Assembly: GCA_046882025.1 (NCBI GenBank)
Contig: JBKSNB010000086.1
Span: forward strand, 1-46,601
Source of the DNA: Alphaproteobacteria bacterium
GTDB taxonomy: Bacteria > Pseudomonadota > Alphaproteobacteria > Rs-D84
Direction of reading: 5' to 3'
DNA: 46,601 nt
This document shows positions 5,915-40,865 of this stretch, piece after piece. The translations under genes and the position numbers were made by a program. The notes below the pieces were generated by a model. The model was not told where the DNA came from and searched no databases. It saw only the letters and a list, made by a program, of their open reading frames with translations. Numbering within the stretch: the first letter of the stretch is position 1; each line of letters starts with the position of its first letter.

Positions 5915-8900
5915 TTCTTTTCATCCTTTACGTTATCCATTGCAAATTTTGCAATATATTTTTTTAAGTCACTTTTGTATTTATTATTAACCTTGGCCAT
6001 ATTAACCAATTTATCAAAATTCTGGTTTGCCGCACGTGCCGCCCCAAATCGCGATTCGGTTTTCAGGAAATCTTCCAATGGAACAATTTCATCTGTATTA
6101 GAATCCATTGTTAATGGATAATGCCCCTCGCCTATCAGGCGCGGATCGAATCGGTATAACGGCCACGCGCCCGTCTGAACCAACCGAGTTTGATGTTCAG
6201 GCGCATTCTGCAAATTAAACCCATGTGCGATACATGGCGCATACGCCAATATCAGCGATGGACCATCAAAACTTTCGGCTTCACGCAGGGCATGTATCGC
6301 CTGGGCTTGATTTGCCCCCAATGCAATCTGGGCGACATAGGCACCAGACATCATCGCAATCATACCCAAATCTTTTTTTGCACGTTCCTTGCCACCGATA
6401 GCAAACTTCATACTGGCACCGAACGGTGTTGCCTTGGACTGCTGACCACCAGTGTTTGAATACCCCTCAGTATCCAGGACCAAAATATTAACATTTTCCC
6501 CACTATGCAACACATGATCCAAACCACCATATCCAATATCGTATGCCCAACCATCACCACCAATAATCCATACTGATTTATCAACAATTGAATCCAGTAA
6601 CACTTCGGCCTGACGAGCAATTGGATTTTTAAATCGTTTCAGTTTTTTTCGCAAATCCGATTCAGTTTCACGTTGTTTCACAACAGAATCTATGTCAAAA
6701 ACCGCATCTGCATTTTCTATCTGCAATTCATGCAACAACGCACGCAACGCATCACGTTTTTGGTTTAATGCGATTCGCATCCCCAGGCCATATTCCGCAT
6801 TATCTTCGAACAACGAATTCGACCACGCAGGTCCCCGACCATTAGAATCCGTTGTCCATGGTGTTGTTGGCAAATTTGCACCATATATCGACGAACAACC
6901 GGTTGCATTGGCAACAATCATACGGTCACCAAACAGGTGCGATAATAATTTTATATATGGTGTTTCACCACACCCAGCGCACGCCCCCGGAAATTCAAAA
7001 TAATGCGGCAATAATTCAATATGCTTTGGAATATTCAAATTTAATTTATCGCGTGATATATCTGGAATTTTCTGTGCTGTGTCAAACGCAACCTGATTCA
7101 CATCGGCATCTTGCTTTTTAATCATAGACAACGCATGCACAGGGCAATTCTTGACACATATACCACACCCGGTGCAATCAGCCGGTGATATTGTTAATGT
7201 ATAATACATTCCTTCGCCCAATTCAGGTGTTTTCATCGGGACAACTATGACACCATGCTTTTCTGCCTCATCCGCCTGTTGCCTGGTCATAACCTTGATA
7301 CGAATGGCCGCATGCGGGCACAGCATTGAACATTTTCCACATTGAATACACTTATTCAAATCGCATGTTGCGACGTTTTCAGAGATTCCGCGTTTTTCAT
7401 ATTTTGATGTTCCAACTGGGTATTGCCCTGCCCCAAACGCACCATCAACCTTAAAACGTGACACAGGAATTTCATCCCCATGATTTGCCGCAATTTCACC
7501 CAAGGTTCCCGCAATCTCAGCCGGTGCATCAGCTGTCATCGCAGGCACAAAATCAGGCGCAAAATTTGACACCGATGATGGCAATTTATACTGCACCAAA
7601 TAATCGGATGCCGTATCAACCGCACTCCAATTCGCCTGAACAACATCCATCCCCTTTTTGCGATATGTTTTTTCAATGGCATCCTTGGCACTGTCTGCTG
7701 CAACCTTAGGGTCAATAATTTTAGTCAAATTAAAGAAATTCAACATTATAAATGTATTTATCCTATTGCCCAGCCCCAGTTTCGCCGCAGCACTGTTTGC
7801 ATCCAAGAAATATACATTTGCACGCATACGTATCAGATGCGCCTGAACATCGCGTGGCAGATTTGCAAATGCGACATCAGGGGACATGGACGTATTAATC
7901 ATAACCGTCCCCCCGGGTCGCAATGCCTTAAACACATCAAAACGCTGTGCAATCATAAAATTAGACACACTTATAAAATCAGCCGATTCAACCAGATATT
8001 CACTCTGAATTGGTTTTGTTGAAAAACGAACATGCGATGCCGTCAATCCACCTGATTTTTTAGAATCATAAACCGCATAAGATTGCGGATACAATTCAGA
8101 ATTTTCACCAACAATTTTTACAATATTTTTGACTGCGCCAACCGTTCCATCAGACCCAATACCATACAATATCGCGGTTTTAACATCTTTATCTTCGATT
8201 GAAAACGCATTATCTGTGGCCAAAGACAGTCCACTTAAATCATCATCAATACCAACCGTAAAATTATGATGTAAATCGCCACGCATCATAAATTCATATA
8301 TCGCCTTAACATCGCGTGGGGTAAATTCCTTGCTGCCCAAACCATAGCGACCACCAAACACAGACACACCACATGGAACAATCGTTTTAATATCCTGGTA
8401 TAATGGTTCACCAATACTGCCCGGTTCCTTGGTTCTATCTAAAACAGCAACCTGCTTAACCGTTTTTGGCAACGCATGCAAAAACGCATCAACCGGGAAC
8501 GGACGATACAAATGTATTTTTATCAAACCCAATCCCTTGGGTAAAAAGCGCAACGTCTCAGAAATCGTTTCACACGCAGACCCCATGGCAACAATAACAT
8601 TTTCCGCCTTTTTATCACCGACATATTCAACCAGCGAATAATTGCGACCCGTCAATTTAGAAAATTCATCCATAACATTTTGCACAATTTCCGGGGTATT
8701 TTGATACAGCGGGTTTGCGGCCTCGCGCCCCTGGAAATAAACATCTGGATTCTGGGCTGTGCCACGAATCGATGGTCTGTCCGGTGACATACCACGACTG
8801 CGCGCCGCAACAACCATATCATCCGGCAACAATTTAGACAAAACATCATCATCTATGCGGCTTAGGCGTGATTCTTCATGACTAGTTCTGAAACCATCAA

Positions 8901-9405
8901 AGAAATGCAAAAACGGGACACGACTGCGCAATGTTGCCGCATGGGCAATTGCCGCCATATCGTGTGCCTGTTGCACATTGTGGGACGACAACATTGCAAA
9001 CCCAGTCCCACGCACAGACATAACATCACTGTGGTCACCAAATATAGATAACGCATGCGTTGCAATCGCGCGCGCCGCCACATGCATAACAAACGGTGTT
9101 TGTTCACCCGCAATTTTATACATATTCGGAATCATTAACAGCAATCCCTGGGACGCCGTAAATGTTGTTGCCATTGCCCCCATCTGTAATGCCCCGTGCA
9201 AGGCACCCGCCGCACCAGCTTCTGACTGCATTTCTATAATTTCTGGAATTGCGCCCCAAATATTTTTCTTGTGCTGGAACGTCCAAGAATCCGCCAATTC
9301 ACCCATAGTACTGCTGGGGGTAATCGGATAAATCGCCGCAAAATCAACACATCGATACGCGACATCCGCCGCCGCCCAATTTCCATCAACAATCAAACTT
9401 GTCAT
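5911..9405 (-). CDS. nifJ: pyruvate:ferredoxin (flavodoxin) oxidoreductase, single-polypeptide NifJ/PFOR type
   Basis: 1164 aa from ATG 9405 (GAGGAA SD). N-terminus MTSLIVDGNWAAADVAYR...YPITPSS. Two 4Fe-4S motifs (CIQCGKCSMLCP, CTGCGICVKNCP). TPP-binding GGDGWAYDIGYGG. The 41 extra N-terminal codons in the ORF track are rejected. Confidence 0.95.
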   Translation of the reverse strand: MTSLIVDGNWAAADVAYRCVDFAAIYPITPSSTMGELADSWTFQHKKNIWGAIPEIIEMQSEAGAAGALHGALQMGAMATTFTASQGLLLMIPNMYKIAGEQTPFVMHVAARAIATHALSIFGDHSDVMSVRGTGFAMLSSHNVQQAHDMAAIAHAATLRSRVPFLHFFDGFRTSHEESRLSRIDDDVLSKLLPDDMVVAARSRGMSPDRPSIRGTAQNPDVYFQGREAANPLYQNTPEIVQNVMDEFSKLTGRNYSLVEYVGDKKAENVIVAMGSACETISETLRFLPKGLGLIKIHLYRPFPVDAFLHALPKTVKQVAVLDRTKEPGSIGEPLYQDIKTIVPCGVSVFGGRYGLGSKEFTPRDVKAIYEFMMRGDLHHNFTVGIDDDLSGLSLATDNAFSIEDKDVKTAILYGIGSDGTVGAVKNIVKIVGENSELYPQSYAVYDSKKSGGLTASHVRFSTKPIQSEYLVESADFISVSNFMIAQRFDVFKALRPGGTVMINTSMSPDVAFANLPRDVQAHLIRMRANVYFLDANSAAAKLGLGNRINTFIMLNFFNLTKIIDPKVAADSAKDAIEKTYRKKGMDVVQANWSAVDTASDYLVQYKLPSSVSNFAPDFVPAMTADAPAEIAGTLGEIAANHGDEIPVSRFKVDGAFGAGQYPVGTSKYEKRGISENVATCDLNKCIQCGKCSMLCPHAAIRIKVMTRQQADEAEKHGVIVVPMKTPELGEGMYYTLTISPADCTGCGICVKNCPVHALSMIKKQDADVNQVAFDTAQKIPDISRDKLNLNIPKHIELLPHYFEFPGACAGCGETPYIKLLSHLFGDRMIVANATGCSSIYGANLPTTPWTTDSNGRGPAWSNSLFEDNAEYGLGMRIALNQKRDALRALLHELQIENADAVFDIDSVVKQRETESDLRKKLKRFKNPIARQAEVLLDSIVDKSVWIIGGDGWAYDIGYGGLDHVLHSGENVNILVLDTEGYSNTGGQQSKATPFGASMKFAIGGKERAKKDLGMIAMMSGAYVAQIALGANQAQAIHALREAESFDGPSLILAYAPCIAHGFNLQNAPEHQTRLVQTGAWPLYRFDPRLIGEGHYPLTMDSNTDEIVPLEDFLKTESRFGAARAANQNFDKLVNMAKVNNKYKSDLKKYIAKFAMDNVKDEKK

Positions 9406-9437
9406 TATATTTCCTCGCGCTTTCTCTATCAGGCATG

Positions 9438-9466
9438 ATGATAGCCACTTTATAAAACCAACGCAA
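9438..9466 (-). promoter_or_regulatory. sigma70-like promoter candidate for PFOR (TTGCGT-N17-TATCAT on the minus strand)
   Basis: -35 at 9461-9466 and -10 at 9438-9443 on the minus strand, about 30 nt upstream of the ATG at 9405. Confidence 0.3.
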
Positions 9467-9544
9467 GAAATAATAAAACACCACTTGACAAACAAAAATT
9501 TTTGTGTCATATTTGTATCAACAAACAAAAAAAGGACAAAGATT

Positions 9545-17660: not shown

Positions 17661-19535
17661 ATGGAATGTATGAAAAAATTATTTATTGGGTCATTATGTG
17701 CAATTACCACATTAACACCTGCATTTGCGGACACTGACAAGTGCACCGACCGGGATTATAGATTATTAAACCCTGAAAAATGCCCAACGCAGAGTTTTAT
17801 GACAACGGGAACCATTTTGGGCATCAGCGGGGGCATCGCCGCCGTTGGCGGTATTGCTGCACTTATTGGTATGGCGGGCGGCGGTTCATCATCAGATGCG
17901 GGCATCGCACCATCTGGTCCAACAACAATATCTTTTCGTTCACCCGCATTGACAAATCAATCTTACCTGTATGACAGTACAGACAAACCGACAAACATTG
18001 ATTTCAGCAATGTAATAAATAGTCCGTACTATATCAAAAATGCCGAACAATATAATGCCATAGGGCTAAATTACGCACATGCACGTGAAAAATACGGCAA
18101 AGGTTCAGAAATTAAAATAATGGATAATTTTTACTATTCCGATGATATTACACACGGTAAAAAAGTATCTTATTTTGCGGAAACAATTGCCCCGTCTGCC
18201 CAGATACAAAATATAAACGTGGCAAATTCTAATGGCACATTAAATTTTAACGAATTTGCAGATAATATCAGCAACACAAAATCTATCTATAACGCCAGTT
18301 GGGAAACACAAACCATTTTCGCAACCCAGGCCACAACCCGCCAATCTATATCTGCCATAACAGGAAATCATTTTATTAACGAAATGGCACGTGCTGCAAA
18401 AGACAATGATTCTATATTCGTATTTGCCGCAGGTAACAGTGGCATGACCGAAAGTTCGGCTTTGTCCGCCCTGCCAATCGCAGTCGAAGAATTACAGGGA
18501 CATTTTATTAATGTTGTTGCATTTGACACAGACACAAACGCATTAGCCAATTATAGCAACCAATGTGGTATTACCCAAGATTATTGTATTGCCGCACCTG
18601 GTTCAAACCTGCACACAGATTATTACGAAAACCTGACATCCTATGGAACCAGTTTTGCCGCCCCAATCGTTACAGGTGCAATAGCAATCTTGCAAGAAAC
18701 ATTCGAAAATCTTACGTCAAATCAAATTGTAGAAATCTTGTTAAGGACGGCAACCGACCTGGGCGAAGATGGCGTCGACAACGTTTATGGATGGGGATTG
18801 TTAAACTTGGAACGCGCCACCAGACCAATTGGTGAAATGAAAGTGGCAATTTCAGGCGAAATCACACAACGCTTGTCAAGCGCGAATGTAACGCCCGCCA
18901 TTGCCGCATCAATCGCAAAATCAGGGGTGACAATGGCCGCATTTGACGAATATGGTCGCGCATATACCCAAAATTTAAGTGATAATGTCAAAATTGTAAA
19001 CCGTGGACGCGCGTTTGACCGCCTGCGCAAAAACGAAACTGCAAACGCTAAATTTGGCATTCTGGAATTTGGTTCCAGTAATGTAAACCTGCTTGAAGGT
19101 AGCGGATTCTTGCAAACAGATACATCACAAAACGGATATATTGCCACGAATTACACTTTTAATTTATCAGACAACGCAAAGTTATTTACCCGTGGTCAAC
19201 TGGGGATAATATCTGCACGCCCTGCCCCAGAATCATTAATTAAACATTTTTCAAACGTATTTACCGCATCTGCAACAATCGGTATGGAATACCAAGATTG
19301 GAAATTTGAATTTACAATTCCTGAAACAATTATATCTGGGAATATGAGTATGTCTTTGGCCAGCACACGTTTGCGTAATGGCGACATCGTATTTAATAAC
19401 TATGATTTCGATTTGGCGACCGACCCAGCATTCGAATACGCCATATCATACAAAAACATAACAGCTGGATTTGTTGATAATCCGATTGGCACAGATGAAT
19501 TTTATGTACTGGCAAAGACTAAAATTGCGTTTTAA
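17661..19535 (+). CDS. S8 subtilisin-family serine peptidase with C-terminal beta-barrel-like (autotransporter-like) domain
   Basis: Signal peptide (MKKLFIGSLCAITTLTPAFA; alternative ATG at 17670). Subtilase contexts EIKIMDNF (Asp), ITHGKKV (His), AAGNSG (Asn) and YGTSFAAPIVTGAIAIL (Ser). Beta-rich C-terminal domain ending KTKIAF. Confidence 0.8.
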   Translation: MECMKKLFIGSLCAITTLTPAFADTDKCTDRDYRLLNPEKCPTQSFMTTGTILGISGGIAAVGGIAALIGMAGGGSSSDAGIAPSGPTTISFRSPALTNQSYLYDSTDKPTNIDFSNVINSPYYIKNAEQYNAIGLNYAHAREKYGKGSEIKIMDNFYYSDDITHGKKVSYFAETIAPSAQIQNINVANSNGTLNFNEFADNISNTKSIYNASWETQTIFATQATTRQSISAITGNHFINEMARAAKDNDSIFVFAAGNSGMTESSALSALPIAVEELQGHFINVVAFDTDTNALANYSNQCGITQDYCIAAPGSNLHTDYYENLTSYGTSFAAPIVTGAIAILQETFENLTSNQIVEILLRTATDLGEDGVDNVYGWGLLNLERATRPIGEMKVAISGEITQRLSSANVTPAIAASIAKSGVTMAAFDEYGRAYTQNLSDNVKIVNRGRAFDRLRKNETANAKFGILEFGSSNVNLLEGSGFLQTDTSQNGYIATNYTFNLSDNAKLFTRGQLGIISARPAPESLIKHFSNVFTASATIGMEYQDWKFEFTIPETIISGNMSMSLASTRLRNGDIVFNNYDFDLATDPAFEYAISYKNITAGFVDNPIGTDEFYVLAKTKIAF

Positions 19536-20395
19536 TTATCGCGCCTTAAATCGAAATTATGTATATAACTAAATCCAATTCCTATGGACGTATTGCTGGC
19601 ATATTTATCTGCACCACGGGCCTTGGCCAAACGGTATTGAAAATATGGTCCCAATGCAAAATTTTTCCATATATTTGTATCTAAACGTATTGTTATATTC
19701 AAATCACGTTCAAAATCAGTGTAAACATACTGTGAATACGAAAAATACTCGCGATAATATCCATCTGTTGAAAACTTGACGCCATCACGAACATTGTATT
19801 CCGCGCGCCAACCCAGTTCTGCAGCGGCCTTGCTGGTCGGACTATCTGTATTGGTAAAATCATATTCATACACACCGACCAGATAAAGATTCTTTAATAT
19901 ATCATGGTCAAACAATGCAACACCTGCATTCGGACGTATAACATTATTTCTGTGCGGATTACCGACAAATTCTGTTTGATATTGTCCACGGAAAATTGGT
20001 CCAAATCTTAAACCGCCAAAATCCCAACATGCATACGACAAATCAGACGAAAACAATATTTTATCTGCACTTTCATCCTTGGTAACAGGTTTATCATATG
20101 GACGTAGTGTCGTTTTACCATATTCCATAAACAAGGAATTATCCCACTTAAACCGATTAAAACCATATTCCAACGCCGTATCAAAAACGCCCTTTAACAA
20201 ATCCTGACTTGTGGCCGTAAACGCAGATATTGGTGATTCCCGATATGCTTGTTCATTCTGCCCTGTAACATTAGTTTTGTTCCAATCGAAACCAATTCTG
20301 CGGATATTCAGATTAAACTTACTTTCGTTCGGCGACGCATCCGCCATTAAAACCGTTGGCATCAAACACATCAAACAAACCAGAATTTTTTTCAT
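19532..20395 (-). CDS. putative outer-membrane beta-barrel protein
   Basis: Start ATG 20395, giving the signal peptide MKKILVCLMCLMPTVLMADA. Aromatic-rich alternating strands (GIGFSYIHNF). Last gene of a 3-gene minus-strand operon. Confidence 0.5.
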   Translation of the reverse strand: MKKILVCLMCLMPTVLMADASPNESKFNLNIRRIGFDWNKTNVTGQNEQAYRESPISAFTATSQDLLKGVFDTALEYGFNRFKWDNSLFMEYGKTTLRPYDKPVTKDESADKILFSSDLSYACWDFGGLRFGPIFRGQYQTEFVGNPHRNNVIRPNAGVALFDHDILKNLYLVGVYEYDFTNTDSPTSKAAAELGWRAEYNVRDGVKFSTDGYYREYFSYSQYVYTDFERDLNITIRLDTNIWKNFALGPYFQYRLAKARGADKYASNTSIGIGFSYIHNFDLRRDN

Positions 20396-20405
20396 AAACA
20401 CACCC

Positions 20406-21017
20406 CTATTTCCAAATGTTAACTGCGGAATCATTCAAAGAATATTTCCACCCATTATCATGCAACGTCGCCATAAATTGTGAACGCTGATGCTTTTGCA
20501 CAAACAATGTCACCTGATTGCCCAAGATTTCATCTATAACAGTGTTAATTTTTTTATTATCAAGAATTTTATTTAATTCAGCCCAATCAGACAATGGATT
20601 TGCCAACTTAACACCCACAACAAAAACATCATCATTTGACGCCGATGTTTTTAACCAATTTTGCACCTCATTCTGCGTCAACCATTGCTGTGCCGCCACC
20701 GAATCAAGTGTCATATAAATGTTTGCAGCATATGTTGTATCTGAAAAACGTTCACCTTCTATTGTGGTTTGTGATATCAATCCCGTCAATTCATCATTTT
20801 TTGCTGCATCAACAACGGTCTTCAACTGATCACGGGCGGCATACTGACCCAATGTATCCATAATTATTTGATGTCGTGCCTCTGCCATAGCGATATTCTT
20901 GGCGGTCACCGCCGTATCGCTGGTAATATTAACAACGGCATTTCCCGACAACACATCCGCCATTGCCGATGGACAAACACACAAACAACAAACAAAAAAT
21001 TTAATAAACCTTAACAT
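20406..21017 (-). CDS. exported hypothetical protein
   Basis: Signal peptide MLRFIKFFVCCLCVCPSAMA. 203 aa and soluble-looking. Abuts the upstream gene (stop at 21018, start at 21017). No family recognised. Confidence 0.55.
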   Translation of the reverse strand: MLRFIKFFVCCLCVCPSAMADVLSGNAVVNITSDTAVTAKNIAMAEARHQIIMDTLGQYAARDQLKTVVDAAKNDELTGLISQTTIEGERFSDTTYAANIYMTLDSVAAQQWLTQNEVQNWLKTSASNDDVFVVGVKLANPLSDWAELNKILDNKKINTVIDEILGNQVTLFVQKHQRSQFMATLHDNGWKYSLNDSAVNIWK

Positions 21018-22583
21018 CTAAAAACGTGCCGCCACACCCAAATGAACACCCAATGATTTATAGAAAGATTTGGTTTCCCCAGAATCCTTTACCGACCATC
21101 CATTGTTTTTTGCGTCATTAATATACAACGCAACCGAATCAGCATCGTATGAATTTCCAGCACTATCGGTAAAACCACCATGCAACATATAATATTCTGC
21201 TTCATTTGGATCCATTCCTGGCAAATTTTTCCACGCAGCCAATTGTGCATCATATACGGCAGTATAGTATGTTGGATTCAAATATGTTGTCGCATCTGCA
21301 GATCCAACGTGATAATAATCATACGTCACACCAATGGATAACGCGATTGAATCTGTGATTGCAGTTGTCCAATTTGCACCTGCGCCCAAATGCAACCCTG
21401 AAAACATAGATGCCTTATCCTCTACACTTTTTGGGTGTTGCCAATCTGGACGATACGGTTGATCGCCGGTCGCATCATACCCCGGCAGTCCCAATTCCAA
21501 ACGTATATTGGCATTATTATTTTTGTTCATTTCATAATCCATATCCAATGCGACATACGGTCCAGACCACACAACATCGTAATCATGCGACGTTCCAGAT
21601 TGCGCATAATAATATGTATTTTCTGTGCTAACATAATTTGCGCCCGGTGACACCAGCACACCTGCAACATCCGCATACCCATCATTATCTACATCCAAAA
21701 GTTTGACGCCACCAACCGCCTGATTCGTAATTGGCTGTCCTTCGCCAGATTGATTAAAGAATATTAACAATGGACCACACTGAACTTCGCCCCCATCTGT
21801 TGTTACACAATTATTACTGACATCCATTGTATCAATTGCCATACCATAATTATCGTTTGTCTTTAATTTGTATTTCAGATACCGATATCCAACTGATGGT
21901 GTCACCCTAAAACCACCCACAGAAAACAAATCCGTTAAACCGACCCCGGCATTAAATCCCAACATATTTCCGCCACTTGTTTTGCCAACAGATAACGCAT
22001 GTCCCATTTGATATTTTTCAAACGCCTGACCCGTAGATGTTGTCCCCTTCCACGCAGATTGAACAAAGCCCCCCAATGAAATATCATCATCAATCATTGA
22101 CGAATCGCCAAACTGAAAACCATACCGAACACCCGCATTAATCTGGAAAGGAACCTTTACATTGCCGAATTTGTATCCACCATCAATTCCCAACACATTC
22201 CAACGAATATTATCATAGTGCAGTTTCGAACCTGCATTTTTCATTTCAAATTCCCAATTAGCAAATTCATGATTTAACCCTGCATCCAAAAAGAAACCAC
22301 TTTTCGATTCGCTAGGTGCCACCTGTTTTTGCGTCTGTTGTGCAACAGGGGCACGTTGTTGGCTGACATTCGTGCCCACAGAATAGCGTGCATTTGTATA
22401 TGATGTATATCCATTTGCATTTGCGTTGTTCGCATTGTTATTACGATAATTAACATAGCCCGCCGCACTGGAATAAGAACGATTATTATTCGTGCTGTTG
22501 TAATACGTTCCCGCTGCACTTGCGACAACCGGCAACAATGAAACAATTAACGACGCACGCAAAATATGTGACAGATAAAACAT
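21018..22583 (-). CDS. putative outer-membrane beta-barrel protein with Asn/Tyr-rich N-terminal tract
   Basis: Start ATG 22583 (AAGGAG SD), giving the signal MFYLSHILRASLIVSLLPVVASAAG. Beta-strand-rich, ending HLGVAARF (terminal Phe, beta-signal-like). Confidence 0.55.
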   Translation of the reverse strand: MFYLSHILRASLIVSLLPVVASAAGTYYNSTNNNRSYSSAAGYVNYRNNNANNANANGYTSYTNARYSVGTNVSQQRAPVAQQTQKQVAPSESKSGFFLDAGLNHEFANWEFEMKNAGSKLHYDNIRWNVLGIDGGYKFGNVKVPFQINAGVRYGFQFGDSSMIDDDISLGGFVQSAWKGTTSTGQAFEKYQMGHALSVGKTSGGNMLGFNAGVGLTDLFSVGGFRVTPSVGYRYLKYKLKTNDNYGMAIDTMDVSNNCVTTDGGEVQCGPLLIFFNQSGEGQPITNQAVGGVKLLDVDNDGYADVAGVLVSPGANYVSTENTYYYAQSGTSHDYDVVWSGPYVALDMDYEMNKNNNANIRLELGLPGYDATGDQPYRPDWQHPKSVEDKASMFSGLHLGAGANWTTAITDSIALSIGVTYDYYHVGSADATTYLNPTYYTAVYDAQLAAWKNLPGMDPNEAEYYMLHGGFTDSAGNSYDADSVALYINDAKNNGWSVKDSGETKSFYKSLGVHLGVAARF

Positions 22584-22667
22584 CAAAAAACTCCTTACCT
22601 TAAAATATCTTATCACAAAACAGTTGCAAAAAAAACACTTTATTGCAAGAATAAACAATCAGTTGAC

Positions 22668-22752
22668 GCAGTCGTGGCGGAATTGGTATACGCGCAGCAC
22701 TAAGGATGCTGTGGGGAAACCCTTGGGGGTTCAAGTCCCCCCGGCTGCACCA
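22668..22752 (+). tRNA. tRNA-Leu, anticodon AAG (A34), class II with long variable arm, CCA encoded
   Basis: Acceptor GCAGTCG/CGGCTGC. D arm GCG-GAATTGGTATA-CGC. Anticodon stem CAGCA/TGCTG with loop CTAAGGA. 13-nt variable arm. T arm GGGGG-TTCAAGT-CCCCC. Position by position it matches the layout of E. coli tRNA-Leu. Confidence 0.9.
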
Positions 22753-22826: not shown

Positions 22827-25412
22827 ATGAAAGGACTTAGGTACATTTTGGCTGTATGCCTTATCCCACTTGTATGTTGGGACACATGGGCGGCTGATGG
22901 TGCGGCTGTTTCGCGCGCCACTGTTCGTCGTGAAACAGCATCATCACGTGGATCTGTGGGTACAACCACGCGTTCAACCGCACCAACCAAGGTCACTATT
23001 CGTGCACGCACAACCACCACACCACGCACAACATCACAACGCCAAACAAATTCGACAGTGCGAACAAATGCGCGGGCTGCGACCACACAATCGAACCCAC
23101 GAACAACGACTGCGCGTGCAGCATTAAATTCTGACGCAGTAAACAATGTTTTGTCCCGCAACTATTCCAACTGCAAAAACGTATTTAACGAATGCATGGA
23201 TGAATTCTGCGCGAACAAGGATAGTCAATTAAAACGCTGTGCATGTTCTGCCCGAATTCATGATTTTGATTCAACCAAGAAACAACTTAATGCCGCCGAA
23301 GATAAATTATTAGATTTCAGCCAACGTTTATTGACCGTAAACCTGGACAAGGAAGACGCCCTGGCAATAAATACCGCCACCGAAGGTGAATTGGCATTCT
23401 ATAACACCACAGACACATCCCAATCAAAACGTGCATTGGATGCGATTGCAAAAAAATTGAACACATCTTTCAAGGGGTCTAATTTTAATACAAATGTGTC
23501 AAACCTGACATGGTCATTGAACGCGGACAGTGCATTTGATTCTGTTAATTCCATGGCGGGCGCATCGACCACAACCAAGAATGGAACGGCACTATATTCT
23601 GCGGCATTGCCGATATGTCGGGAAATGGCACGCGAAGTATGTTCTGAATATGAATTAACCATTGCCGAAAACGGCTATCAAATGTTAATTGCCCAGGATT
23701 GCAACACCGTTGAAAAAACGTATAAGACCCAGGTTGACCAAACCCGCGATAAAATCTTAGAAAGCAGCGCCCTGTTGGATATGTCACGTTTGGATATTTA
23801 TCAACAGCGTAATTCTGATGATATTTTAACGTGCAAGGGTAAAATGTTGGAAATGTTGACCGACAATACGGTTTGCGGTCCAACACTTGATAAATGTTTG
23901 GATAATACGGGGCGTTATATTAATCCAACAACGGGAACGGCATTTTTAACCGTAAATCTGACTGATTTGAATAATTTGATAATCCGTCCGACGGGCAATC
24001 AGACCTGGGCATCATTGAACCCCAGTTTTATATCATTTCTGAATTCGAAACGCAAATATATAGAAACGGCATCTGAACATTGCCAGGATATCGCCGACAA
24101 CGTATGGACCGCATTTGTCGAAGATGCATTGGCACAGATTAAATTGGCCCAGGCGGCAAAATTGGAAACCATACGCCAGGGTTGCACAACCCTGTCGTCA
24201 CAGTGCCTGACAGAATCCATCAAATCGATTCAGGATTTCGATTCACGTGCTCTGTCTATATTTGGTGTAAATGCGAATAAAACTGCGAATGGAATGTGCA
24301 GCGACATAATCAAATCATGCGAATTGGTTTTAGGCGACGATGATTCTAAATTATGGTCTACGGGTATGACCGATATTGCGACAATGGAAACATACGAAAC
24401 GATTATGTCCACCTGTCGCGAAGTCGGACGCAGTTGTATCATACGTTCGTGTTCATCAATATCTGGAAACTTTGGTTTATGCGAAAGTACCACTTATTCT
24501 GTAAACCGTGCATCAATATTAAATCGTTTGGCATGTTGGGACGAAGTAAAGGTGTGTGTTGAATCTGCGGGCAAATCATTGAACAACATTATGACAACAA
24601 TGGCGGGTGAAATTGGATTTGATAAGGACAACAACAACTTTTACAAAAAATTATATGGCGACAAAACACCAAACGACGCAATATGTTCTGGTGAATCGGG
24701 CGACTATGCGTGTTACCTGACGGAACGCATTTGGGGCAATTGCGATGACAAACCATCATCAGACGCATCAAACAAAATAATGAAACCAACTGACACCCAA
24801 GAAACAACATTGTTAAGTTGGTTCGCATCCAATACATCTTATTCGTGCAATGTTGCCATTTGTCCAGAAGGCAAAATATTAAAACAAACCAGCGACTCTT
24901 CTTATTACTGTGTAAATGCTGGCGACTATATTTGTGATGTTAAATGTAGCGGTACCAAAAGAATTTGGGTTACATCTGATGTTCAAAACTGTTGCACAAC
25001 TGGCACGGATGCCTATGGTAATTGCTGTTCAAATAAAACAATACTTACACCAGGCCACTCTGACAAATGGTGGGGCAACGAATTTAACCAAAAAATATGC
25101 GTGCCATCAGATAATTATAAATATATTATCAGTTATAATGGCACCACCCTGTTTTGTGGTGGGGATGTTGATGACTCTGATCCAAATAAAATAACATGCA
25201 ACAATTCAATGTTTAAAATTGATACGATTAACAAAGGTAATAAGAATAATGAGAATTGGAACTATGTTTCATTGGGTGATTCATTAAACATAACCCAATC
25301 TTATATTGCAGACACAACCGATAGCGGGACCTGCGCTAGCTCAGTATGCACGTTCAATGGCACATGGGGGGAATGTGAATCCCCACAACACTGGTCAGTG
25401 AATTTCGAATAA
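22827..25412 (+). CDS. giant secreted cysteine-rich protein, CMDxFC-motif family (member 1, 861 aa)
   Basis: Signal peptide MKGLRYILAVCLIPLVCWDTWA. Arg/Thr/Ser-rich tract (aa 25-100). Motif NCKNVFNECMDEFCANKDSQLKRCACS. The rest is a long region with many paired Cys. Closest paralogue is 43522-45801. Confidence 0.8.
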   Translation: MKGLRYILAVCLIPLVCWDTWAADGAAVSRATVRRETASSRGSVGTTTRSTAPTKVTIRARTTTTPRTTSQRQTNSTVRTNARAATTQSNPRTTTARAALNSDAVNNVLSRNYSNCKNVFNECMDEFCANKDSQLKRCACSARIHDFDSTKKQLNAAEDKLLDFSQRLLTVNLDKEDALAINTATEGELAFYNTTDTSQSKRALDAIAKKLNTSFKGSNFNTNVSNLTWSLNADSAFDSVNSMAGASTTTKNGTALYSAALPICREMAREVCSEYELTIAENGYQMLIAQDCNTVEKTYKTQVDQTRDKILESSALLDMSRLDIYQQRNSDDILTCKGKMLEMLTDNTVCGPTLDKCLDNTGRYINPTTGTAFLTVNLTDLNNLIIRPTGNQTWASLNPSFISFLNSKRKYIETASEHCQDIADNVWTAFVEDALAQIKLAQAAKLETIRQGCTTLSSQCLTESIKSIQDFDSRALSIFGVNANKTANGMCSDIIKSCELVLGDDDSKLWSTGMTDIATMETYETIMSTCREVGRSCIIRSCSSISGNFGLCESTTYSVNRASILNRLACWDEVKVCVESAGKSLNNIMTTMAGEIGFDKDNNNFYKKLYGDKTPNDAICSGESGDYACYLTERIWGNCDDKPSSDASNKIMKPTDTQETTLLSWFASNTSYSCNVAICPEGKILKQTSDSSYYCVNAGDYICDVKCSGTKRIWVTSDVQNCCTTGTDAYGNCCSNKTILTPGHSDKWWGNEFNQKICVPSDNYKYIISYNGTTLFCGGDVDDSDPNKITCNNSMFKIDTINKGNKNNENWNYVSLGDSLNITQSYIADTTDSGTCASSVCTFNGTWGECESPQHWSVNFE

Positions 25413-35060: not shown

Positions 35061-35681
35061 TTAACGATATTGATTATTCCGCAATTTTGACGGGAACAAC
35101 ATAAATACAAACATAACCGTCGACCATAACCATGATATTGCTGACAACAGTATGCATACTGGCAAAAATGCCTCTGCTACCATTATTGCCAAACTAATCC
35201 ACAACAAATGTGCCGACATACCCGCATCATGCAAACGACGCGCCATCAATGCCCACATTGGTATAATTATCACCATGCACCACAGTGCATATATCGCCCA
35301 ACACCACCACAGTGCAATTGGCGATGCCGCGACCACGATTTCTGCTGGTAACGTTTCAACCATTGGAATACGTGCAAACACAATTATTGTGGCGACGGTC
35401 AATATCACCGCCGGACCAAACGCCATCAAAAACATCCACCAATATTCAGCGCGCGTCGCGACACCTGTAAAATTAAAATATCCACGAAAGAAATTCGCAA
35501 TTGCGCGCCCAAGCGACACCATTTTGGGCTTTTCAGGTGCCCTTGCCGTTACAACGGGTTTAACAACCTTTTTGGCAACAACCTTGCGTGCAGGGGCTTT
35601 CTTGACCGCTGGTTTTACAGTTTTTTTAACAGGTACCTTTTTGGCAACTGGCTTTTTTATCGTTTTCTTTTTTGCTGGCAT
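35061..35681 (-). CDS. DUF805-family inner-membrane protein with Lys/Pro/Val-rich (histone-H1-like) N-terminal tract
   Basis: KKPVAKKVPVKKTVKPAVKKAPARKVVAKK tract, then a DUF805-like core (FNFTGVATRAEYWW...RRLHDAGMS) with several TM helices. AGGAGA SD. Confidence 0.6.
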   Translation of the reverse strand: MPAKKKTIKKPVAKKVPVKKTVKPAVKKAPARKVVAKKVVKPVVTARAPEKPKMVSLGRAIANFFRGYFNFTGVATRAEYWWMFLMAFGPAVILTVATIIVFARIPMVETLPAEIVVAASPIALWWCWAIYALWCMVIIIPMWALMARRLHDAGMSAHLLWISLAIMVAEAFLPVCILLSAISWLWSTVMFVFMLFPSKLRNNQYR

Positions 35682-35754
35682 AACTCTTTTCTCCTATATG
35701 TGCATATATTACATTTTTTTGCACACTTTAACAAGCATTTTATTTAATTCCCTA

Positions 35755-35784
35755 TTGACATATTTTTGTGAAATTTACTATCAT
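35755..35784 (+). promoter_or_regulatory. promoter candidate (TTGACA-N18-TATCAT) for the MotA/ExbB-like gene
   Basis: -35 at 35755-35760 and -10 at 35779-35784, 24 nt upstream of the ATG at 35809. Confidence 0.35.
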
Positions 35785-35808
35785 CAAATCATAACATTTG
35801 GGGGATGT

Positions 35809-36567
35809 ATGACAAATCATTTTCATATGACACTTAATCGCATGGCGTTTTTTACCGCATTTCTGGCGGTTGTGTTGATATTATTCTGGCCCCAATTTAT
35901 ATCCATCGCGGTTTCGAACATCGTATTAAATGGTATTATTATCGGCACTGGATTATTCGGCATAGGATTATGTTTCTATGAAATGTTCAAATTACTGCCG
36001 GAATATCGTTGGTTGTCGGCATACGTGAATGGCGATAAAAATACCCCCCTGCCCCCGATATTACTGCGACCGGTGGCGTTAATGTTGCACGCACAACCAA
36101 AAAAAATATCCACCAACACATTACAGGGATTCCTGGACATGATAATGGTGCGATTTGAAGATTCACGCGAATCGGTTCGCTATATCACAAACACATTAAT
36201 CTTTCTGGGGTTGTTGGGGACATTCTGGGGATTGATTGTGACGGTTGGCGGATTTTCTGAATTGCTGACGTCACTCGATTTTACGAACGAATCGGTATTA
36301 AGCACGATGCAATCTGGCCTATCGCGCCCATTGTCCGGTATGGCAACCGCGTTTACCAGTTCACTGTTGGGTCTGGCATCCAGTTTGTCGGTTGGTTTCC
36401 TGGGGTTGCAGGTTCAATTGGCGCAAAACGCAATATTCCGCGAATTGGAAGATTACCTGTCTGCACACACATCTGTGTCAGACGAAACATCAATTAATCA
36501 AATTCTGCCACAGATAAATTTAATAACCCGCGAACTATCGCGTACTGTGGTAAAACCAACAAAATAA
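35809..36567 (+). CDS. MotA/TolQ/ExbB-family proton-channel protein (252 aa)
   Basis: Start ATG 35809 (GGGGGA SD). TM helices and the channel signature LIFLGLLGTFWGLIVTVGGF...PLSGMATAFTSSLLGLASSL. The ORF-track N-terminal extension overlaps the opposite-strand gene and is rejected. Confidence 0.65.
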   Translation: MTNHFHMTLNRMAFFTAFLAVVLILFWPQFISIAVSNIVLNGIIIGTGLFGIGLCFYEMFKLLPEYRWLSAYVNGDKNTPLPPILLRPVALMLHAQPKKISTNTLQGFLDMIMVRFEDSRESVRYITNTLIFLGLLGTFWGLIVTVGGFSELLTSLDFTNESVLSTMQSGLSRPLSGMATAFTSSLLGLASSLSVGFLGLQVQLAQNAIFRELEDYLSAHTSVSDETSINQILPQINLITRELSRTVVKPTK

Positions 36568-36591: not shown

Positions 36592-37683
36592 ATGTTAAAT
36601 ATTCGTTTTCGCAATCAGACAAATGCATGGCCTGGATTCGTTGATTTATTTTCCAATCTGGTCATAATACTGATTTTCTTGTTAATCGTGTTCGTATTCT
36701 TGTGGACAACGACAAATGTATTTAACAAGGGCGGTGCTGCAAAGCAAATGGCGGACCTGCGCCAGGTAAACGCCGAACAGGCGGCATCGATTCAGCAAAT
36801 GTCTGCGGACAACCAGGCGGCAACATCGCTGTTGGTGCGTGCACGTGACGAATTAATAAACCTGGAATCACACAATGAAAAATTACACTCAGAAATTTCT
36901 GACATGAATTTGAGTATAAATGATTTGGTCACCGCGTATGAGGCTAAGATTGCCGACCTGCAATCCCAGGCAGATGAATTGGCGGCGGAATTGGCTGAAC
37001 GCCAGGCTGCACAAAGTGATGTTGTTGTGCAAAGTGTTGAAATGAACGAACAAATGGAAAAAACAACGGCCGAATTGAACGCGACCAAGGCAGAATTGGA
37101 AAAATTACGTGATGCATTGGCGATTGCCGAAGAACAATCTGCGGCCAAGGATGCAGAATATGCCGCGATGTCAAACCGCCTGAACAAAGCATTGGCAGAC
37201 AAGGTTGCAGAACTGAATGAAATGGCCCAATATCAATCTGATTTTTATAAACAAATCAAAATTGCATTGGGCGATCGCACAACACTGCGCCCCGATGGCG
37301 ACCGCTTTATCGTATCCAGCGATATATTATTCAAATCTGGTTCATATAAATTATCAGACGATGGAAAAAAGCAATTACGCTTAATCGCGAATGTCATCAA
37401 AGATTTTGAAGAAAAAATACCAACCGATATTGATTGGGTAATTCGTGTTGACGGTCACACCGACAAACGTGGTGTTATCCCCGGAACACATGCATATCAG
37501 GACAACATACAATTGTCATTCCTGCGTGCAACGGCGGTTGCAAATGAATTGGAACGAAACGGTGTATCACGTCGCCGGTTATTGCCATCAGGTTTCGGTG
37601 ACACACACCCATTTGCGCTGGGCGACACACCCGCAGATTTGGAACAAAATCGCCGTATAGAATTACAACTAACAAACAAATAA
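36592..37683 (+). CDS. MotB/OmpA-family peptidoglycan-binding protein with long coiled-coil linker (363 aa)
   Basis: MotB-type TM with an Asp (AWPGFVDLFSNLVIILIFLL). Long Ala/Glu/Gln-rich coiled coil (aa ~50-215). OmpA-like domain (ILFKSGSYKLSDDG...VDGHTDKRGV...LSFLRATAVANEL...NRRIELQL). Confidence 0.7.
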   Translation: MLNIRFRNQTNAWPGFVDLFSNLVIILIFLLIVFVFLWTTTNVFNKGGAAKQMADLRQVNAEQAASIQQMSADNQAATSLLVRARDELINLESHNEKLHSEISDMNLSINDLVTAYEAKIADLQSQADELAAELAERQAAQSDVVVQSVEMNEQMEKTTAELNATKAELEKLRDALAIAEEQSAAKDAEYAAMSNRLNKALADKVAELNEMAQYQSDFYKQIKIALGDRTTLRPDGDRFIVSSDILFKSGSYKLSDDGKKQLRLIANVIKDFEEKIPTDIDWVIRVDGHTDKRGVIPGTHAYQDNIQLSFLRATAVANELERNGVSRRRLLPSGFGDTHPFALGDTPADLEQNRRIELQLTNK

Positions 37684-37925: not shown

Positions 37926-38288
37926 TTACATCTTTTTAACCGTATCAACATCTATTTGAATATCGTTACCGTTCTTGTCCAATTCGCCCATAATCATAAC
38001 CATATCATTCGGACCAACCATAACTTCGCCCCACGCATCGTCATCTATATCGACCATTATTTTCGTGCCGTTTGCATCCTGGAAAACATAAATGTCATTG
38101 CCCATATTTTGAACCAAATAACCCTGTGCAACAACACGCGAATCATCGTTCAACATTTTTATGTCTTCAACCATCATTACCGACGGTTTAGTATTTTTAT
38201 ACATATTGTTATTATGCATCATCTGACCCGCAACCGCGACCCCAGACATAAATGCAGCCACAACTGCAACCATTGATATTTTTTTCAT
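37926..38288 (-). CDS. YgiW/YdeI-type bacterial OB-fold (BOF) periplasmic protein
   Basis: Start ATG 38288 (AAGGAG SD). Signal peptide. BOF-like core VVAQGYLVQNMGNDIYVFQDANGTKIMVDIDDDAWGE...VMIMGELDKNGNDIQIDV. Confidence 0.6.
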   Translation of the reverse strand: MKKISMVAVVAAFMSGVAVAGQMMHNNNMYKNTKPSVMMVEDIKMLNDDSRVVAQGYLVQNMGNDIYVFQDANGTKIMVDIDDDAWGEVMVGPNDMVMIMGELDKNGNDIQIDVDTVKKM

Positions 38289-38370
38289 GTGTTTTTCTCC
38301 TTTGGTGTTTGTTTTACACATAAATAATTTTACACGTGGGCTTTATAAAAACCATAGGAACAAAAACAAA

Positions 38371-38396: not shown

Positions 38397-40865
38397 TTAC
38401 ATTTGAATATCTTCACAATTCGGTCCATCAGATTCTGTTTCACACGATGTATTCCGACTGTTATGGAACCAAGACGAACTGCCACTAGTTGAGCAAGACT
38501 GTGTCGAAGTCGTTGTACAAACATGACATATTCTGGTATCACGATTAAACACAGATGTAACCTCTTTGGTAACACCGCCCAAACTGCCAGAATTACCACC
38601 TAAATATCCTGAATTACTGTATGAACTGTTTGCCAACTGTGACACACCTGCGCCGCCATTCAATAACTCTATATTTTGCAAACCATTGGCAACATCATAA
38701 CTTATCGCATAAGGTGGGGTCAACGGTGTTGATGGCGCAATACTGGCCACGTTTGAAATATTTCCACTTTCCGCAATTTTTTGACACATATACTGGGCAA
38801 TATCAGCAGATGCATTTTTCGTTGCATTGGCAATTTCTTCGGTCACCCTGGCATTATAATTATCTTGGGCCTGACGCAATGCCGAAACTGCTATCTGCAT
38901 CTTTACCGAATTCAACAGATTCGGGAAACGCGCCATTGTTGCAGCGCCTGCCTTACCCGTTATCTGTGACAAATCACGTCCATTAACACAATATTGGATC
39001 TCTGGGTCCTGTTCAATTAAATCTATGGTTCGATTAATTGTTCCGGCAATATTATTCAATTCTGCGGCTATCGTATTTATGACATCTTCATCTGATGCTT
39101 TATTATTCTGGGCGCGAACATTTTCAATATAATCTGCGACCCCAATTTGTCCCGGCGCCAAAACCCCATCACCATCAACCGTTTTTCCAGACGCGTCACC
39201 AATCTTGATACTGCCGAAAGAAATCATCCCAGTCACACGATACAAATCATCAATCTTTTGTGATCTGATTGATCCTGTACCCATGGTATCATCCGCGGCA
39301 AAACGGTTACAATCGGTGGTACTGCCACATATTTCTGTCATTTTCCTATCAACTATGTTTTGGCAATTATCCAACATAGAATTATCAATATTCAAATATA
39401 ATCCCATCAACATAGAATCCAAATCATCCATTGAAAAGTTTGGATTAGCTTGTTTACATACAACCAGTTTATCAATTGGACAAATATCATGAATATAGTT
39501 GTAATCCATACCTATACATTTTGAAAAGTCAGCCCCACAACGCATATCATCCATAAAGCAATCTTTTACCTCTGTCGTACAGGCATCAACACGCATTGCC
39601 GCCAATTTATCCGTCACGTATGACCATATCTGGGGTTCCATACGTTCACACGGATCTATTTCCACCTTGCAGAATGAACGTGCCATATCGGGGCGTGCCA
39701 AACACGCATCCATTGTTGCAACGCCCTTGCCTGCGATATCATCCTTGCACGCGGTTTGGATACATTTTGATATATCAGATAAACACGATTGACGTTTTTT
39801 TGATTCCGCCTGGGTTTCCGCCAAACGAATCGTTGGGGCCGCTTCACGCAAAAAATCGTTCCAAATCGTATCGCGCACAGCAACACATGAATCTAAAACA
39901 TTTTCACAGATATAACGTTTCGATTCCAATATTTCCATCGTTGATGCTGTAATATCGTACACAGTTGTTGTTTTTACAGTTGTATTTTTTGTTGATTTTG
40001 TTTTCTGTTGCGCATTTTCAGCCGCAATTGTGAACACACAGTTTTCCCAATTTGAACCACACGCATCCGCCGTTTGCATACACTTTTTATATTCAACCAT
40101 ACACTGACCACGATCATATTTATTTGCCGATGCCAAACTGTCACGCAATGCAGAACGCACCGCCGCCTGGGCCGATGACAACGCCTGACGCGCCTCTGCT
40201 TCCTTGGTGGAAATACTGTTTTCCAACGCTTTGCAATCAGACAAAATCTGACGTGAATATATAGATTTTAAGAACGAAATATCCTTAGTGCACGAATCAT
40301 CCATTTGTTCCACGCACAAATTATGTGCCGCTGAAAACAATGCATTACCCGACTTATTTGTTATGTCATCAAATTCATCTTCAAACACATCATCATCGTA
40401 TGACGTATTAAACATCGCCAATAACGATTCGCGTTTTTGTTTTTTGCTATCTTTGCCGTCTGATTGTTTAGAAACATTTCCATTTTCATCATATTGACGT
40501 GTTCCACTAAAAATAATATCTGCATTTGCACCCGCCTGAACACGTTCCACTTCTTCGGTTGCGATACGTTCGGCTTCGTTCAGATTATCTCGAATAGTAT
40601 TCAGACGTGCCTCATACTTTGAATTTTCATCACTGCATGCGCAACTGCCCCCGCTGACATTATCAATAATACAAAACTGATCCATACAACCATAATACGC
40701 ATCATAACATGCCTGGTCATAAATTCCCGTTGGGGTCACACGCGTCCGAACCGTTGTTCCCATCTGAATCGCAGATTGCTTTTTTGCGGTCGCTGTTGCA
40801 GCATTTACATTTCCACCCAGCAAAACAGCAGATATTGCAAATATCGAACAAACAGTTTTTTTCAT
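38397..40865 (-). CDS. giant secreted cysteine-rich protein, CMDxFC-motif family (member 2, 822 aa)
   Basis: Signal peptide MKKTVCSIFAISAVLLGGNVNA. Short basic Thr/Arg tract. Motif ACYDAYYGCMDQFCIIDNVSGGSCACS. Colinear with 40888-43047. C-terminal tail ...ICHVC...NCEDIQM. Confidence 0.8.
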   Translation of the reverse strand: MKKTVCSIFAISAVLLGGNVNAATATAKKQSAIQMGTTVRTRVTPTGIYDQACYDAYYGCMDQFCIIDNVSGGSCACSDENSKYEARLNTIRDNLNEAERIATEEVERVQAGANADIIFSGTRQYDENGNVSKQSDGKDSKKQKRESLLAMFNTSYDDDVFEDEFDDITNKSGNALFSAAHNLCVEQMDDSCTKDISFLKSIYSRQILSDCKALENSISTKEAEARQALSSAQAAVRSALRDSLASANKYDRGQCMVEYKKCMQTADACGSNWENCVFTIAAENAQQKTKSTKNTTVKTTTVYDITASTMEILESKRYICENVLDSCVAVRDTIWNDFLREAAPTIRLAETQAESKKRQSCLSDISKCIQTACKDDIAGKGVATMDACLARPDMARSFCKVEIDPCERMEPQIWSYVTDKLAAMRVDACTTEVKDCFMDDMRCGADFSKCIGMDYNYIHDICPIDKLVVCKQANPNFSMDDLDSMLMGLYLNIDNSMLDNCQNIVDRKMTEICGSTTDCNRFAADDTMGTGSIRSQKIDDLYRVTGMISFGSIKIGDASGKTVDGDGVLAPGQIGVADYIENVRAQNNKASDEDVINTIAAELNNIAGTINRTIDLIEQDPEIQYCVNGRDLSQITGKAGAATMARFPNLLNSVKMQIAVSALRQAQDNYNARVTEEIANATKNASADIAQYMCQKIAESGNISNVASIAPSTPLTPPYAISYDVANGLQNIELLNGGAGVSQLANSSYSNSGYLGGNSGSLGGVTKEVTSVFNRDTRICHVCTTTSTQSCSTSGSSSWFHNSRNTSCETESDGPNCEDIQM

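Follow-up and report, generated by a model that had tools for sequence, protein, structure and literature searches.

A Lineage-Specific Family of Cysteine-Rich Proteins with Hypervariable C-Terminal Modules in Gut Alphaproteobacteria

Introduction

Bacterial surface proteins and adhesins built of a stalk and a variable head occur as paralogous families with recombining distal domains, and polymorphic toxin systems (CdiA, Rhs and similar) join a conserved N-terminal part to an exchangeable C-terminal part. OmcB and OmcA, the cysteine-rich outer-membrane complex proteins of chlamydiae, are located in the envelope and contain about 5% Cys. Here we describe a family of cysteine-rich proteins, the CMDxFC family, that can be set beside each of these systems. 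The analysis centres on one gene, M1 (22827–25412, + strand), in a 46.6-kb contig of a metagenome-assembled genome (MAG) labelled ‘Alphaproteobacteria bacterium’; the whole of this stretch of DNA is referred to as the window. M1 encodes a protein of 861 amino acids (aa) with 42 Cys, listed by NCBI as hypothetical protein ACLRFJ_02575. The gene is a fixed element of its locus, and comparison with relatives points to a hot spot of exchange that begins inside M1 and takes in the Cys-rich gene next to it.

The closest genome relatives of the window are Candidatus Enterousia species, which belong to the order Rs-D84 and have genomes below 1 Mb with about 850–900 genes (PMC12306168). Members of Rs-D84 are fermentative, anaerobic gut Alphaproteobacteria without respiratory chains; their reduced genomes lack most biosynthetic pathways and keep rod-shape and peptidoglycan genes, and a dependence on partner cells was proposed by the authors (PMC12306168). 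These bacteria are widespread in the gut and uncultured (PMC12306168). No paper linking the two was found in a search of the literature on Rs-D84 combined with ‘cysteine-rich’.

Results and Discussion

A six-frame scan of the window (C.D.{1,2}C with context) located the CMDxFC motif in exactly four long open reading frames (ORFs): M1, M2 (38397–40865, − strand, 822 aa), M3 (40888–43056, − strand, 722 aa) and M4 (43522–45801, + strand, 759 aa). An initial annotation made from the letters of the window had described M1 as colinear with M4, and had paired these two as one sub-family and M2 and M3 as the other. Both descriptions are borne out. BLASTP aligns M1 with M4 over 557 columns at 27% identity (175 bits, E=1e-49), from residue 1 to residue 543 of M1 and 529 of M4, and the two peptide pairs that had been quoted as examples face each other in the alignment (M1 350–373 with M4 339–362; M1 418–438 with M4 406–426). 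M2 and M3 match with 206 bits (E=2e-60), while the cross pairs reach 44–72 bits (E from 1e-7 to 3e-16); M1 itself matches M2 at E=1e-13 and M3 at E=2e-8.

Both M1 and M4 contain many Cys and a low-complexity Arg/Thr/Ser tract, and their resemblance could in principle be an artefact of composition. We give this explanation practically no credence. With signal peptide and tract removed, the Smith–Waterman score is 440, against 53±8 (maximum 85) for 100 shuffles (z=48), the BLASTP E value quoted above is composition-corrected, and hhalign of the M1 and M4 ortholog profiles returns a probability of 100% (E=2.5e-52). The same shuffling procedure gives z=67 for M2–M3 and 17–25 for the cross pairs, and hhalign comparison of the scaffold profiles built from ortholog alignments gives probabilities of 99–100%. 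In an alignment of 99 sequences from all four groups, 16 Cys are invariant. The motif region contributes C116, C123, M124, D125, F127, C128, C138 and C140, and further invariant non-Cys positions are S141, G187, G253, L256, Y284, N329, G351, L405 and A434. Because alignments, shuffles, profiles and invariant residues agree, M1 is confirmed as a member of the CMDxFC family and as the sub-family partner of M4.

The conserved N-terminal scaffolds (~430 aa) are joined to C-terminal parts that are unrelated between the paralogues, with hhalign probabilities below 1% for M1 against M4, M1 against M2 and M4 against M2. This agrees with the earlier description of a common scaffold with differing C-terminal thirds, and the modules named there, a CC-containing one in M1 (NCCTTGTDAYGNCCSNK) and CXXC runs in M4, are both present in the sequences. 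The further suggestion that the heads are swapped stands only in part: the heads do vary among orthologs, but an NCC...GNCC pattern is common to the head-bearing M1 orthologs, which marks it as a trait of the M1 lineage and not as a foreign cassette acquired by a recent swap.

M1 can be divided into five segments. The N-terminus, which is kept in orthologs, reads as a Sec-type signal peptide (residues 1–22; 22827–22892, + strand) composed of MKGLR, a hydrophobic core (YILAVCLIPLVCW) and the cleavage region DTWA|AD; signal peptides of this n-h-c architecture with an AxA-like site were recognized by eye in all four proteins. A Tat signal was rejected for M1, as its RR motif lies C-terminal and not N-terminal of the hydrophobic segment, and a lipoprotein identity was rejected for both M1 and M4, neither of which has a lipobox at a plausible distance. 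AAGGA stands just 5' of the M1 ATG; a scan for promoters and terminators gave no matches above shuffle expectation. The signal peptide is followed by a basic Arg/Thr/Ser tract (residues 23–104; 22893–23138, + strand), which is predicted to be disordered: the AlphaFold2 model has a predicted local distance difference test score (pLDDT) below 50 at residues 14–109. The composition count supports the tract reported earlier for both proteins, with 13 R, 22 T and 9 S among 82 residues in M1 and 13 R, 19 T and 10 S among 78 residues in M4 (residues 21–98). The net charge of this region is +11 in M1 and +13 in M4 as against 0 in M3 and +3 in M2. Among M1 orthologs the composition of the tract is kept at a sequence identity of only 20–42%.

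The scaffold proper (residues 105–545; 23139–24461, + strand) is shared with M4, M2 and M3. It opens with the motif C-x6-CMDxFC-x9-CxC, present in M1 as CKNVFNECMDEFCANKDSQLKRCAC, contains the 16 invariant Cys and is modelled as long helices (138–170, 274–328, 423–471 and 492–542; pLDDT of the whole model 72.5). A Cys-rich, mostly helical extension that is specific to the M1 lineage (residues 546–672; 24462–24842, + strand) follows, modelled up to about residue 670 and ending at TTLLSWFA-NT. The protein closes with a hypervariable, beta-rich and Cys-rich head (residues 673–861; 24843–25409, + strand) that carries the NCC...GNCC motif and has HWSVNF as its last strand. The strands modelled within 683–860 are short and scattered, unlike a membrane barrel, as judged from secondary structure only. 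M4 follows the same helix plan (pLDDT 75.4, with 283 residues at 90 or above) and consists of a signal peptide (1–20), the tract (21–98), the scaffold (99–530), a hypervariable CXXC module (561–660) with beta hairpins at 596–627, and a helical tail (661–759). The module is only 11–38% identical among M4 orthologs; the tail after it is conserved.

Database searches place the family in one lineage. Queries with three of the paralogues (M1, M4 and M2) found over 800 homologues for each; all those with a name are listed as hypothetical proteins, and nearly all come from MAGs labelled ‘Alphaproteobacteria bacterium’, with one labelled Muribaculaceae. An exhaustive hidden Markov model search of 1.84 billion cluster representatives returned 1,029 of them at E≤1e-3, with 596 reaching E≤1e-30, that is, a family of about 1,000 clusters at 50% identity. 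Searches of Pfam, NCBIfam and PHROGs with the four proteins and the neighbouring Cys-rich protein gave only sub-threshold noise (Mucin, Bacteriocin_IIc, Ephrin_rec_like), and Pfam searches with 28 family members singly (E≤0.05) gave nothing consistent and no OmcB or OmcA match. A sequence-profile search of the PDB with the 99-sequence alignment found no match at E≤1, and Foldseek found nothing below E=0.07 for the M1 model against PDB and BFVD or for the M4 model against PDB; its top matches were generic long-helix proteins with TM-scores below 0.2. The CMDxFC family is specific to the Candidatus Enterousia/Rs-D84 lineage and has no counterpart in these databases.

M1 lies directly downstream of a tRNA-Leu(AAG) gene (22668–22752, + strand; ARAGORN), with 74 bp between them, and another Cys-rich gene follows 50 bp after its stop codon. 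From this arrangement, described correctly in the initial annotation, it had been proposed that the two genes form an accessory islet inserted beside the tRNA. Loci were compared by tblastn of the window proteins together with ARAGORN, and eight of them include the upstream flank (L001, L002, L003, L005, L006, L009, L010 and L011). All eight have the order porin-like gene, tRNA-Leu(AAG), M1, variable space, pth, polA, including L002 and L003, in which M1 is only 43–46% identical to the window protein; L004, which lacks upstream sequence, has pth downstream of its M1 ortholog. The left neighbour is a Pom-like (PF17251) outer-membrane porin-like gene (21018–22658, − strand; E=2e-10), and on the right pth, which encodes peptidyl-tRNA hydrolase (27251–27769, − strand; identified by Pfam and synteny), marks the boundary of the variable space, with the conserved polA (27831–30611) beyond it.

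These results leave the islet proposal highly improbable. In its favour M1 does abut the tRNA gene, and the downstream gene (25463–27250) is present, absent or replaced among the relatives, so that the variable half of the proposal holds for this gene. M1 itself, in contrast, is conserved and not accessory: its adjacency to tRNA-Leu(AAG) persists in all eight relatives down to 43% identity, and synteny of this kind had been named in the initial annotation as evidence against the proposal. The variable segment also starts inside M1 and not at the tRNA, no integrase or other mobility gene was found near M1 when the neighbouring proteins were scanned with Pfam, a search of the window for a second, att-like copy of the tRNA 3' terminus found only the one in the tRNA gene, and the GC content of 0.41–0.43 across the M1 locus is that of the rest of the window. 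The tRNA-Leu gene is thus a conserved neighbour of M1 and not an island attachment site, and M1, M2, M3 and M4 are part of the conserved backbone, or core genome, of the lineage.

The tRNA is itself unusual. Its anticodon is AAG (A34; loop C-U-A-A-G-G-A), its CCA end is encoded, and every relative examined has kept it. Few bacteria have an A34 tRNA-Leu; in those that do, deamination by TadA turns the anticodon into IAG (PMC13249217, PMC8266599); in a genome below 1 Mb it may represent a tRNA-sparing strategy for CUN codons.

The segment that varies between loci extends from inside M1, at about residue 590, up to pth. The core of M1 (residues 110–580) is 60–89% identical between the window protein and its orthologs, as against 8–41% with 12–42% gaps for residues 680–861. 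The closest strain, L009 (P0002), resolves the boundary. Its porin-like protein is 97.5% identical to that of the window and its M1 scaffold 98.2% identical, with a synonymous divergence (dS) of 0.13 and a ratio of nonsynonymous (dN) to synonymous divergence of 0.07; the head is 63.6% identical (dN 0.27, dS 0.68, dN/dS 0.40) and the downstream Cys-rich protein only about 22%. At the DNA level, identity is 93–99% from 22055 to about 24600, except for 83–91% over the tract (22955–23251), and 47–78% beyond about 24600, which places the strain-level breakpoint inside the extension. The five-fold jump in dS indicates block exchange by recombination and not merely faster point substitution.

Head and downstream gene can also be missing together. 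Headless M1 orthologs occur in L001 (704 aa), L010 (P0010, 717 aa) and L011 (P0007, 733 aa); they stop just after TTLLYWFA-NT, the counterpart of TTLLSWFA-NT at the end of the extension, and pth then follows directly. In head-bearing loci the downstream Cys-rich gene encodes 199, 354, 390 or 595 aa, and in L009 at least 453 aa, where the contig ends. Overall, this gene is absent in four of the eight relatives with upstream flank (L001, L003, L010 and L011) and encodes 199–390 aa in three others. Together these observations show a hot spot: the M1 head and the adjacent Cys-rich gene undergo exchange or loss as one block, and the mosaic breakpoint falls near residues 590–640.

The second half of the hypervariable segment is the Cys-rich repeat gene of the window (25463–27250, + strand), which encodes a predicted secreted protein of 595 aa with 52 Cys (8.7%). 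It contains a tandem repeat of 126 bp (26852–27123, + strand; 2.2 copies, 84% match) that encodes the 42-aa module CENCP-GYTSNEGA-DCY-IC-GQYAT and indicates recent repeat expansion. BLASTP detects no similarity between the M1 head and the neighbouring Cys-rich proteins, which are weakly related to each other (E from 1e-4 to 1e-9). Three relatives have a further gene of about 145 codons between M1 and the Cys-rich gene (L002 12929–13363, L005 12716–13165, L006 12586–13014); neither the window nor L009 has this gene. Its lipoprotein-like product starts with M-YKKIIPYKLRRALSMATIAG...C, ends with WFVKNGWTINxxYQNQK and, when the three sequences are read by eye, looks well conserved among these loci.

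A conserved N-terminal part joined to a variable C-terminal one, a breakpoint immediately N-terminal of the latter, a next gene that varies as well and the joint loss of head and gene in three genomes are also what would be expected if M1 were polymorphic toxin-like, that is, a conserved delivery body with an exchangeable C-terminal effector and one or more downstream genes as an immunity or partner module. We nevertheless regard this as quite improbable. The head contains no toxin, pre-toxin or Hint/VENN-type domain and has no Foldseek match, and the head-bearing orthologs share the NCC...GNCC framework in place of unrelated domains. The downstream protein, which is large (199–595 aa), secreted and made of Cys-rich repeats, is unlike an immunity protein, and L003 has a head without a downstream gene. 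The ~145-aa lipoprotein-like gene looks well conserved across L002, L005 and L006 and is absent in the window.

On balance we lean, with modest confidence, towards the view that the CMDxFC proteins are disulfide-stapled surface-contact proteins with exchangeable heads. In the mechanism that we propose, four ancient paralogues (M1 with M4, M2 with M3) would be exported as large proteins by the Sec system. Each would begin with a cleavable signal peptide and a disordered tract, which in M1 and M4 is basic and rich in Arg/Thr/Ser, and continue with an elongated long-helix scaffold of about 430 aa with 16 invariant Cys and a C-terminal part that is specific to the paralogue. In the periplasm the Cys would form about eight disulfides and staple the helices into a rigid stalk. 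This sequence of Sec export followed by oxidative folding is suggested by the signal peptides, the helix models and a syntenic DsbA-like thiol-disulfide oxidoreductase gene (30674–31528, − strand), which lies three genes downstream and encodes a CPYC site and an N-terminal membrane anchor; it is plausible that this enzyme is the oxidase for the CMDxFC proteins. The lack of respiratory chains in Rs-D84 (PMC12306168) raises the question of how a DsbA-like protein would be re-oxidized. The mature proteins would be components of the envelope or the surface. M2 and M3, slow-evolving and of fixed length, would have a structural or anchoring role. M1 and M4 would display a Cys-rich, fast-evolving distal module outward, and this module would either make contact with partner or host cells or be under phage or immune pressure.

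The anchoring role is assigned to M2 and M3 because of their C-terminal motif and, in M3, a glycine-zipper-like stretch. M2 is the most conserved of the four (64–86% identity, lengths 817–866); its terminal CEDIxM is invariant in orthologs, which do not have the Gly/Ala-rich stretch of M3. M3 ends with CEDINM after such a hydrophobic stretch: its C-terminal ~60 codons, like those of the L007 gene at 7329–9491, encode a conserved Gly/Ala-rich segment (GASAGTMVTPGWGTAIGAVVGAVG) and then EFCQEIESCEDINM. This segment could be a membrane-insertion or sorting element. M3 probably starts not at the annotated GTG (43056) but at an ATG at 43047 (MKLLNF...), which matches the orthologs. Typical ortholog identities are ~65% at fixed length for M2 and 44–56% with variable length for M1 and M4; lengths range over 691–1117 aa for M1, 708–1014 aa for M4 and 817–866 aa for M2. 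The order M2–M3–infA–M4 (window infA at 43184–43432) is syntenic in Candidatus E. avicola.

Several observations weigh against surface contact through exchangeable heads. The proteins lack a lipobox, a beta-barrel and any known signal for secretion or sorting, and may remain periplasmic; the long head of L003 without a downstream gene means that head and gene are not strictly coupled. The dN/dS of the head in the comparison with L009 (0.40) is below 1, a value that fits recombination together with selection that is relaxed or episodic and leaves positive selection unproven; the dS of the head is perhaps partly inflated by alignment uncertainty, with 18 gapped codons. Both the window and L009 are metagenome assemblies, in which strain-chimeric assembly at the variable region is possible.

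An alternative that we consider possible, if unlikely, is that all four have a structural role in the periplasm or envelope, where they would form a disulfide-cross-linked lattice or struts stiffening the envelope of a cell with a reduced genome, with no binding role. Such a function would resemble that of the chlamydial cysteine-rich outer-membrane complex, and is consistent with the Cys content of the family (~4.5–5%), the even set of invariant Cys, the Sec signal peptides without a recognizable outer-membrane export signal, the uniform conservation of M2, the envelope-related neighbours (Pom-like porin, OmpA-domain proteins, MotA/ExbB-like and DsbA-like proteins), and a basic tract that could bind peptidoglycan or lipopolysaccharide. 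A purely internal scaffold, however, does not account for the hypervariable, dispensable heads of M1 and M4 or for mosaic exchange with a neighbouring secreted gene. The lineage also keeps its rod-shape and peptidoglycan genes (PMC12306168), so a cell-wall substitute is not needed, and there is no homology to OmcB or OmcA. Surface contact remains the reading that we prefer.

The window contains further envelope-related genes. Upstream of the tRNA, the Pom-like porin gene is part of a conserved envelope block with genes for a 203-aa secreted protein (20406–21017, − strand), a DUF3078-like protein (19532–20434, − strand) and an S8 subtilase (17661–19535, + strand). Several genes of the block evolve much faster than their housekeeping neighbours; against L001, identity is 50% for the 203-aa protein and 67% for the subtilase, as opposed to 99% for EF-Ts. 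Just upstream of a 131-aa ORF (37926–38321) and M2 lie genes for a weakly MotA/ExbB-like protein (471 aa; 35152–36567, + strand) and a protein of 363 aa in which a coiled-coil N-terminal part is joined to an OmpA domain (36592–37683, + strand), possibly a stator-like or Tol-like pair. The L007 gene at the position of the 131-aa ORF encodes a BOF-domain protein (PF04076). In Candidatus E. avicola, the second gene downstream of the M4 ortholog encodes an autotransporter that matches Chlam_PMP faintly (L007 13286–15682, − strand; L008 9076–11322, − strand), and the window ends short of the matching position.

A third Cys-rich secreted protein is encoded between recO and rplI (32307–33698, + strand; 463 aa, 52 Cys, 11.2%); its repeats follow the pattern CP-NATC-GG-F-C-GY-K. 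It matches the 595-aa protein through its internal repeats alone (BLASTP E=2.5e-4), and by eye its tail (...T-K-T/S-x-CY...G-F-L...W) resembles those of the 390-aa and 354-aa Cys-rich proteins of L002 and L006. Because the recO–rplI junction is empty in L005, L010 and L011 and holds two diverged copies in L001 (27–28% identity), this gene is truly accessory.

The family is noteworthy because it is lineage-specific, structurally unmatched and presumably disulfide-rich, because its genes belong to the core genome of a gut symbiont with a reduced genome, and because the M1 head and the adjacent gene are exchanged at a defined hot spot; its function is inferred. Four proteins of 720–860 aa that are kept across a lineage with only ~850–900 genes per genome, have no Pfam, NCBIfam or PDB counterpart and carry exchangeable distal modules are prime candidates for the contact machinery. 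The hot spot (24.6–27.25 kb) could be used for strain typing, the conserved scaffolds as antigens or probes for visualizing cells, and the heads in binding assays. Should the proteins prove to be merely envelope struts, they would still be a helical, disulfide-rich family new to science, and one from a gut bacterium that lives anaerobically. A bolder proposal, which we put forward tentatively and think doubtful as a whole, is that the CMDxFC proteins and the Cys-rich repeat genes set between housekeeping genes are the variable contact or antigen repertoire of an obligate gut epibiont or parasite, a bacterial counterpart of the variant surface proteins of eukaryotic parasites. The scaffold would then be a previously undescribed disulfide-stapled helical fold, and the hot spot (from about residue 590 of M1 to pth) would swap head and partner gene as a block, setting specificity for a partner or host such as gut protists, other bacteria or epithelium.

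Comparison with Known Systems

The CMDxFC family belongs to none of the systems with which it was compared, although it shares features with several. The CXXC/CPxG-type repeats of the Giardia variant-specific surface proteins and of furin-like and ephrin-receptor-like (PF07699) proteins recur in the M4 module (CFMCPTRCATCQ...CNTC) and in the products of 25463–27250 and 32307–33698, and the high variability of variant surface antigens is likewise found in the M4 module and the neighbouring Cys-rich genes. The M1 head differs in having CC doublets and not CXXC, and no C-terminal membrane anchor or CRGKA tail is present; the Ephrin_rec_like model scores 15.4 bits on the 595-aa protein, below its cut-off of 23.1, and does not match M1 or M4.

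With polymorphic toxins, M1 has in common the conserved N-terminal part, the exchangeable C-terminal part with a breakpoint before it, and the variable downstream gene. It differs in that Pfam, NCBIfam, PHROG and Foldseek searches of its C-terminus find no toxin or pre-toxin demarcation domain, that the heads have a common Cys framework, and that the downstream gene encodes a large secreted repeat protein (199–595 aa, Cys-rich), lost with the head in three loci and absent in L003 where the head is present.

Like OmcB and OmcA, the CMDxFC proteins are Cys-rich at about 5% and carry signals for Sec export in a partner-dependent bacterium, and the gene that adjoins the M1 locus belongs to the Pom porin family of Protochlamydia (PF17251). 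The two groups are not homologous, however: the chlamydial proteins have a beta-rich and the CMDxFC proteins a helical fold, the C-terminal modules of the latter are hypervariable, and the Rs-D84 lineage keeps peptidoglycan and rod-shape genes.

With stalk-plus-variable-head adhesins, M1 and M4 share a conserved elongated body, a fast-evolving distal domain of variable length, the existence of paralogues, and mosaic exchange that affects only the distal part. The CMDxFC proteins differ in having no autotransporter barrel, YadA-type head or anchor, lipobox or known sorting signal; for M1, a test for autotransporters and trimeric autotransporters gave no Pfam match to a C-terminal beta-barrel or YadA anchor. 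Whereas the stalks of such adhesins may be trimeric coiled coils, that of the CMDxFC proteins, with its 16 conserved Cys, looks in the AlphaFold2 models like a bundle formed by long helices within one molecule.

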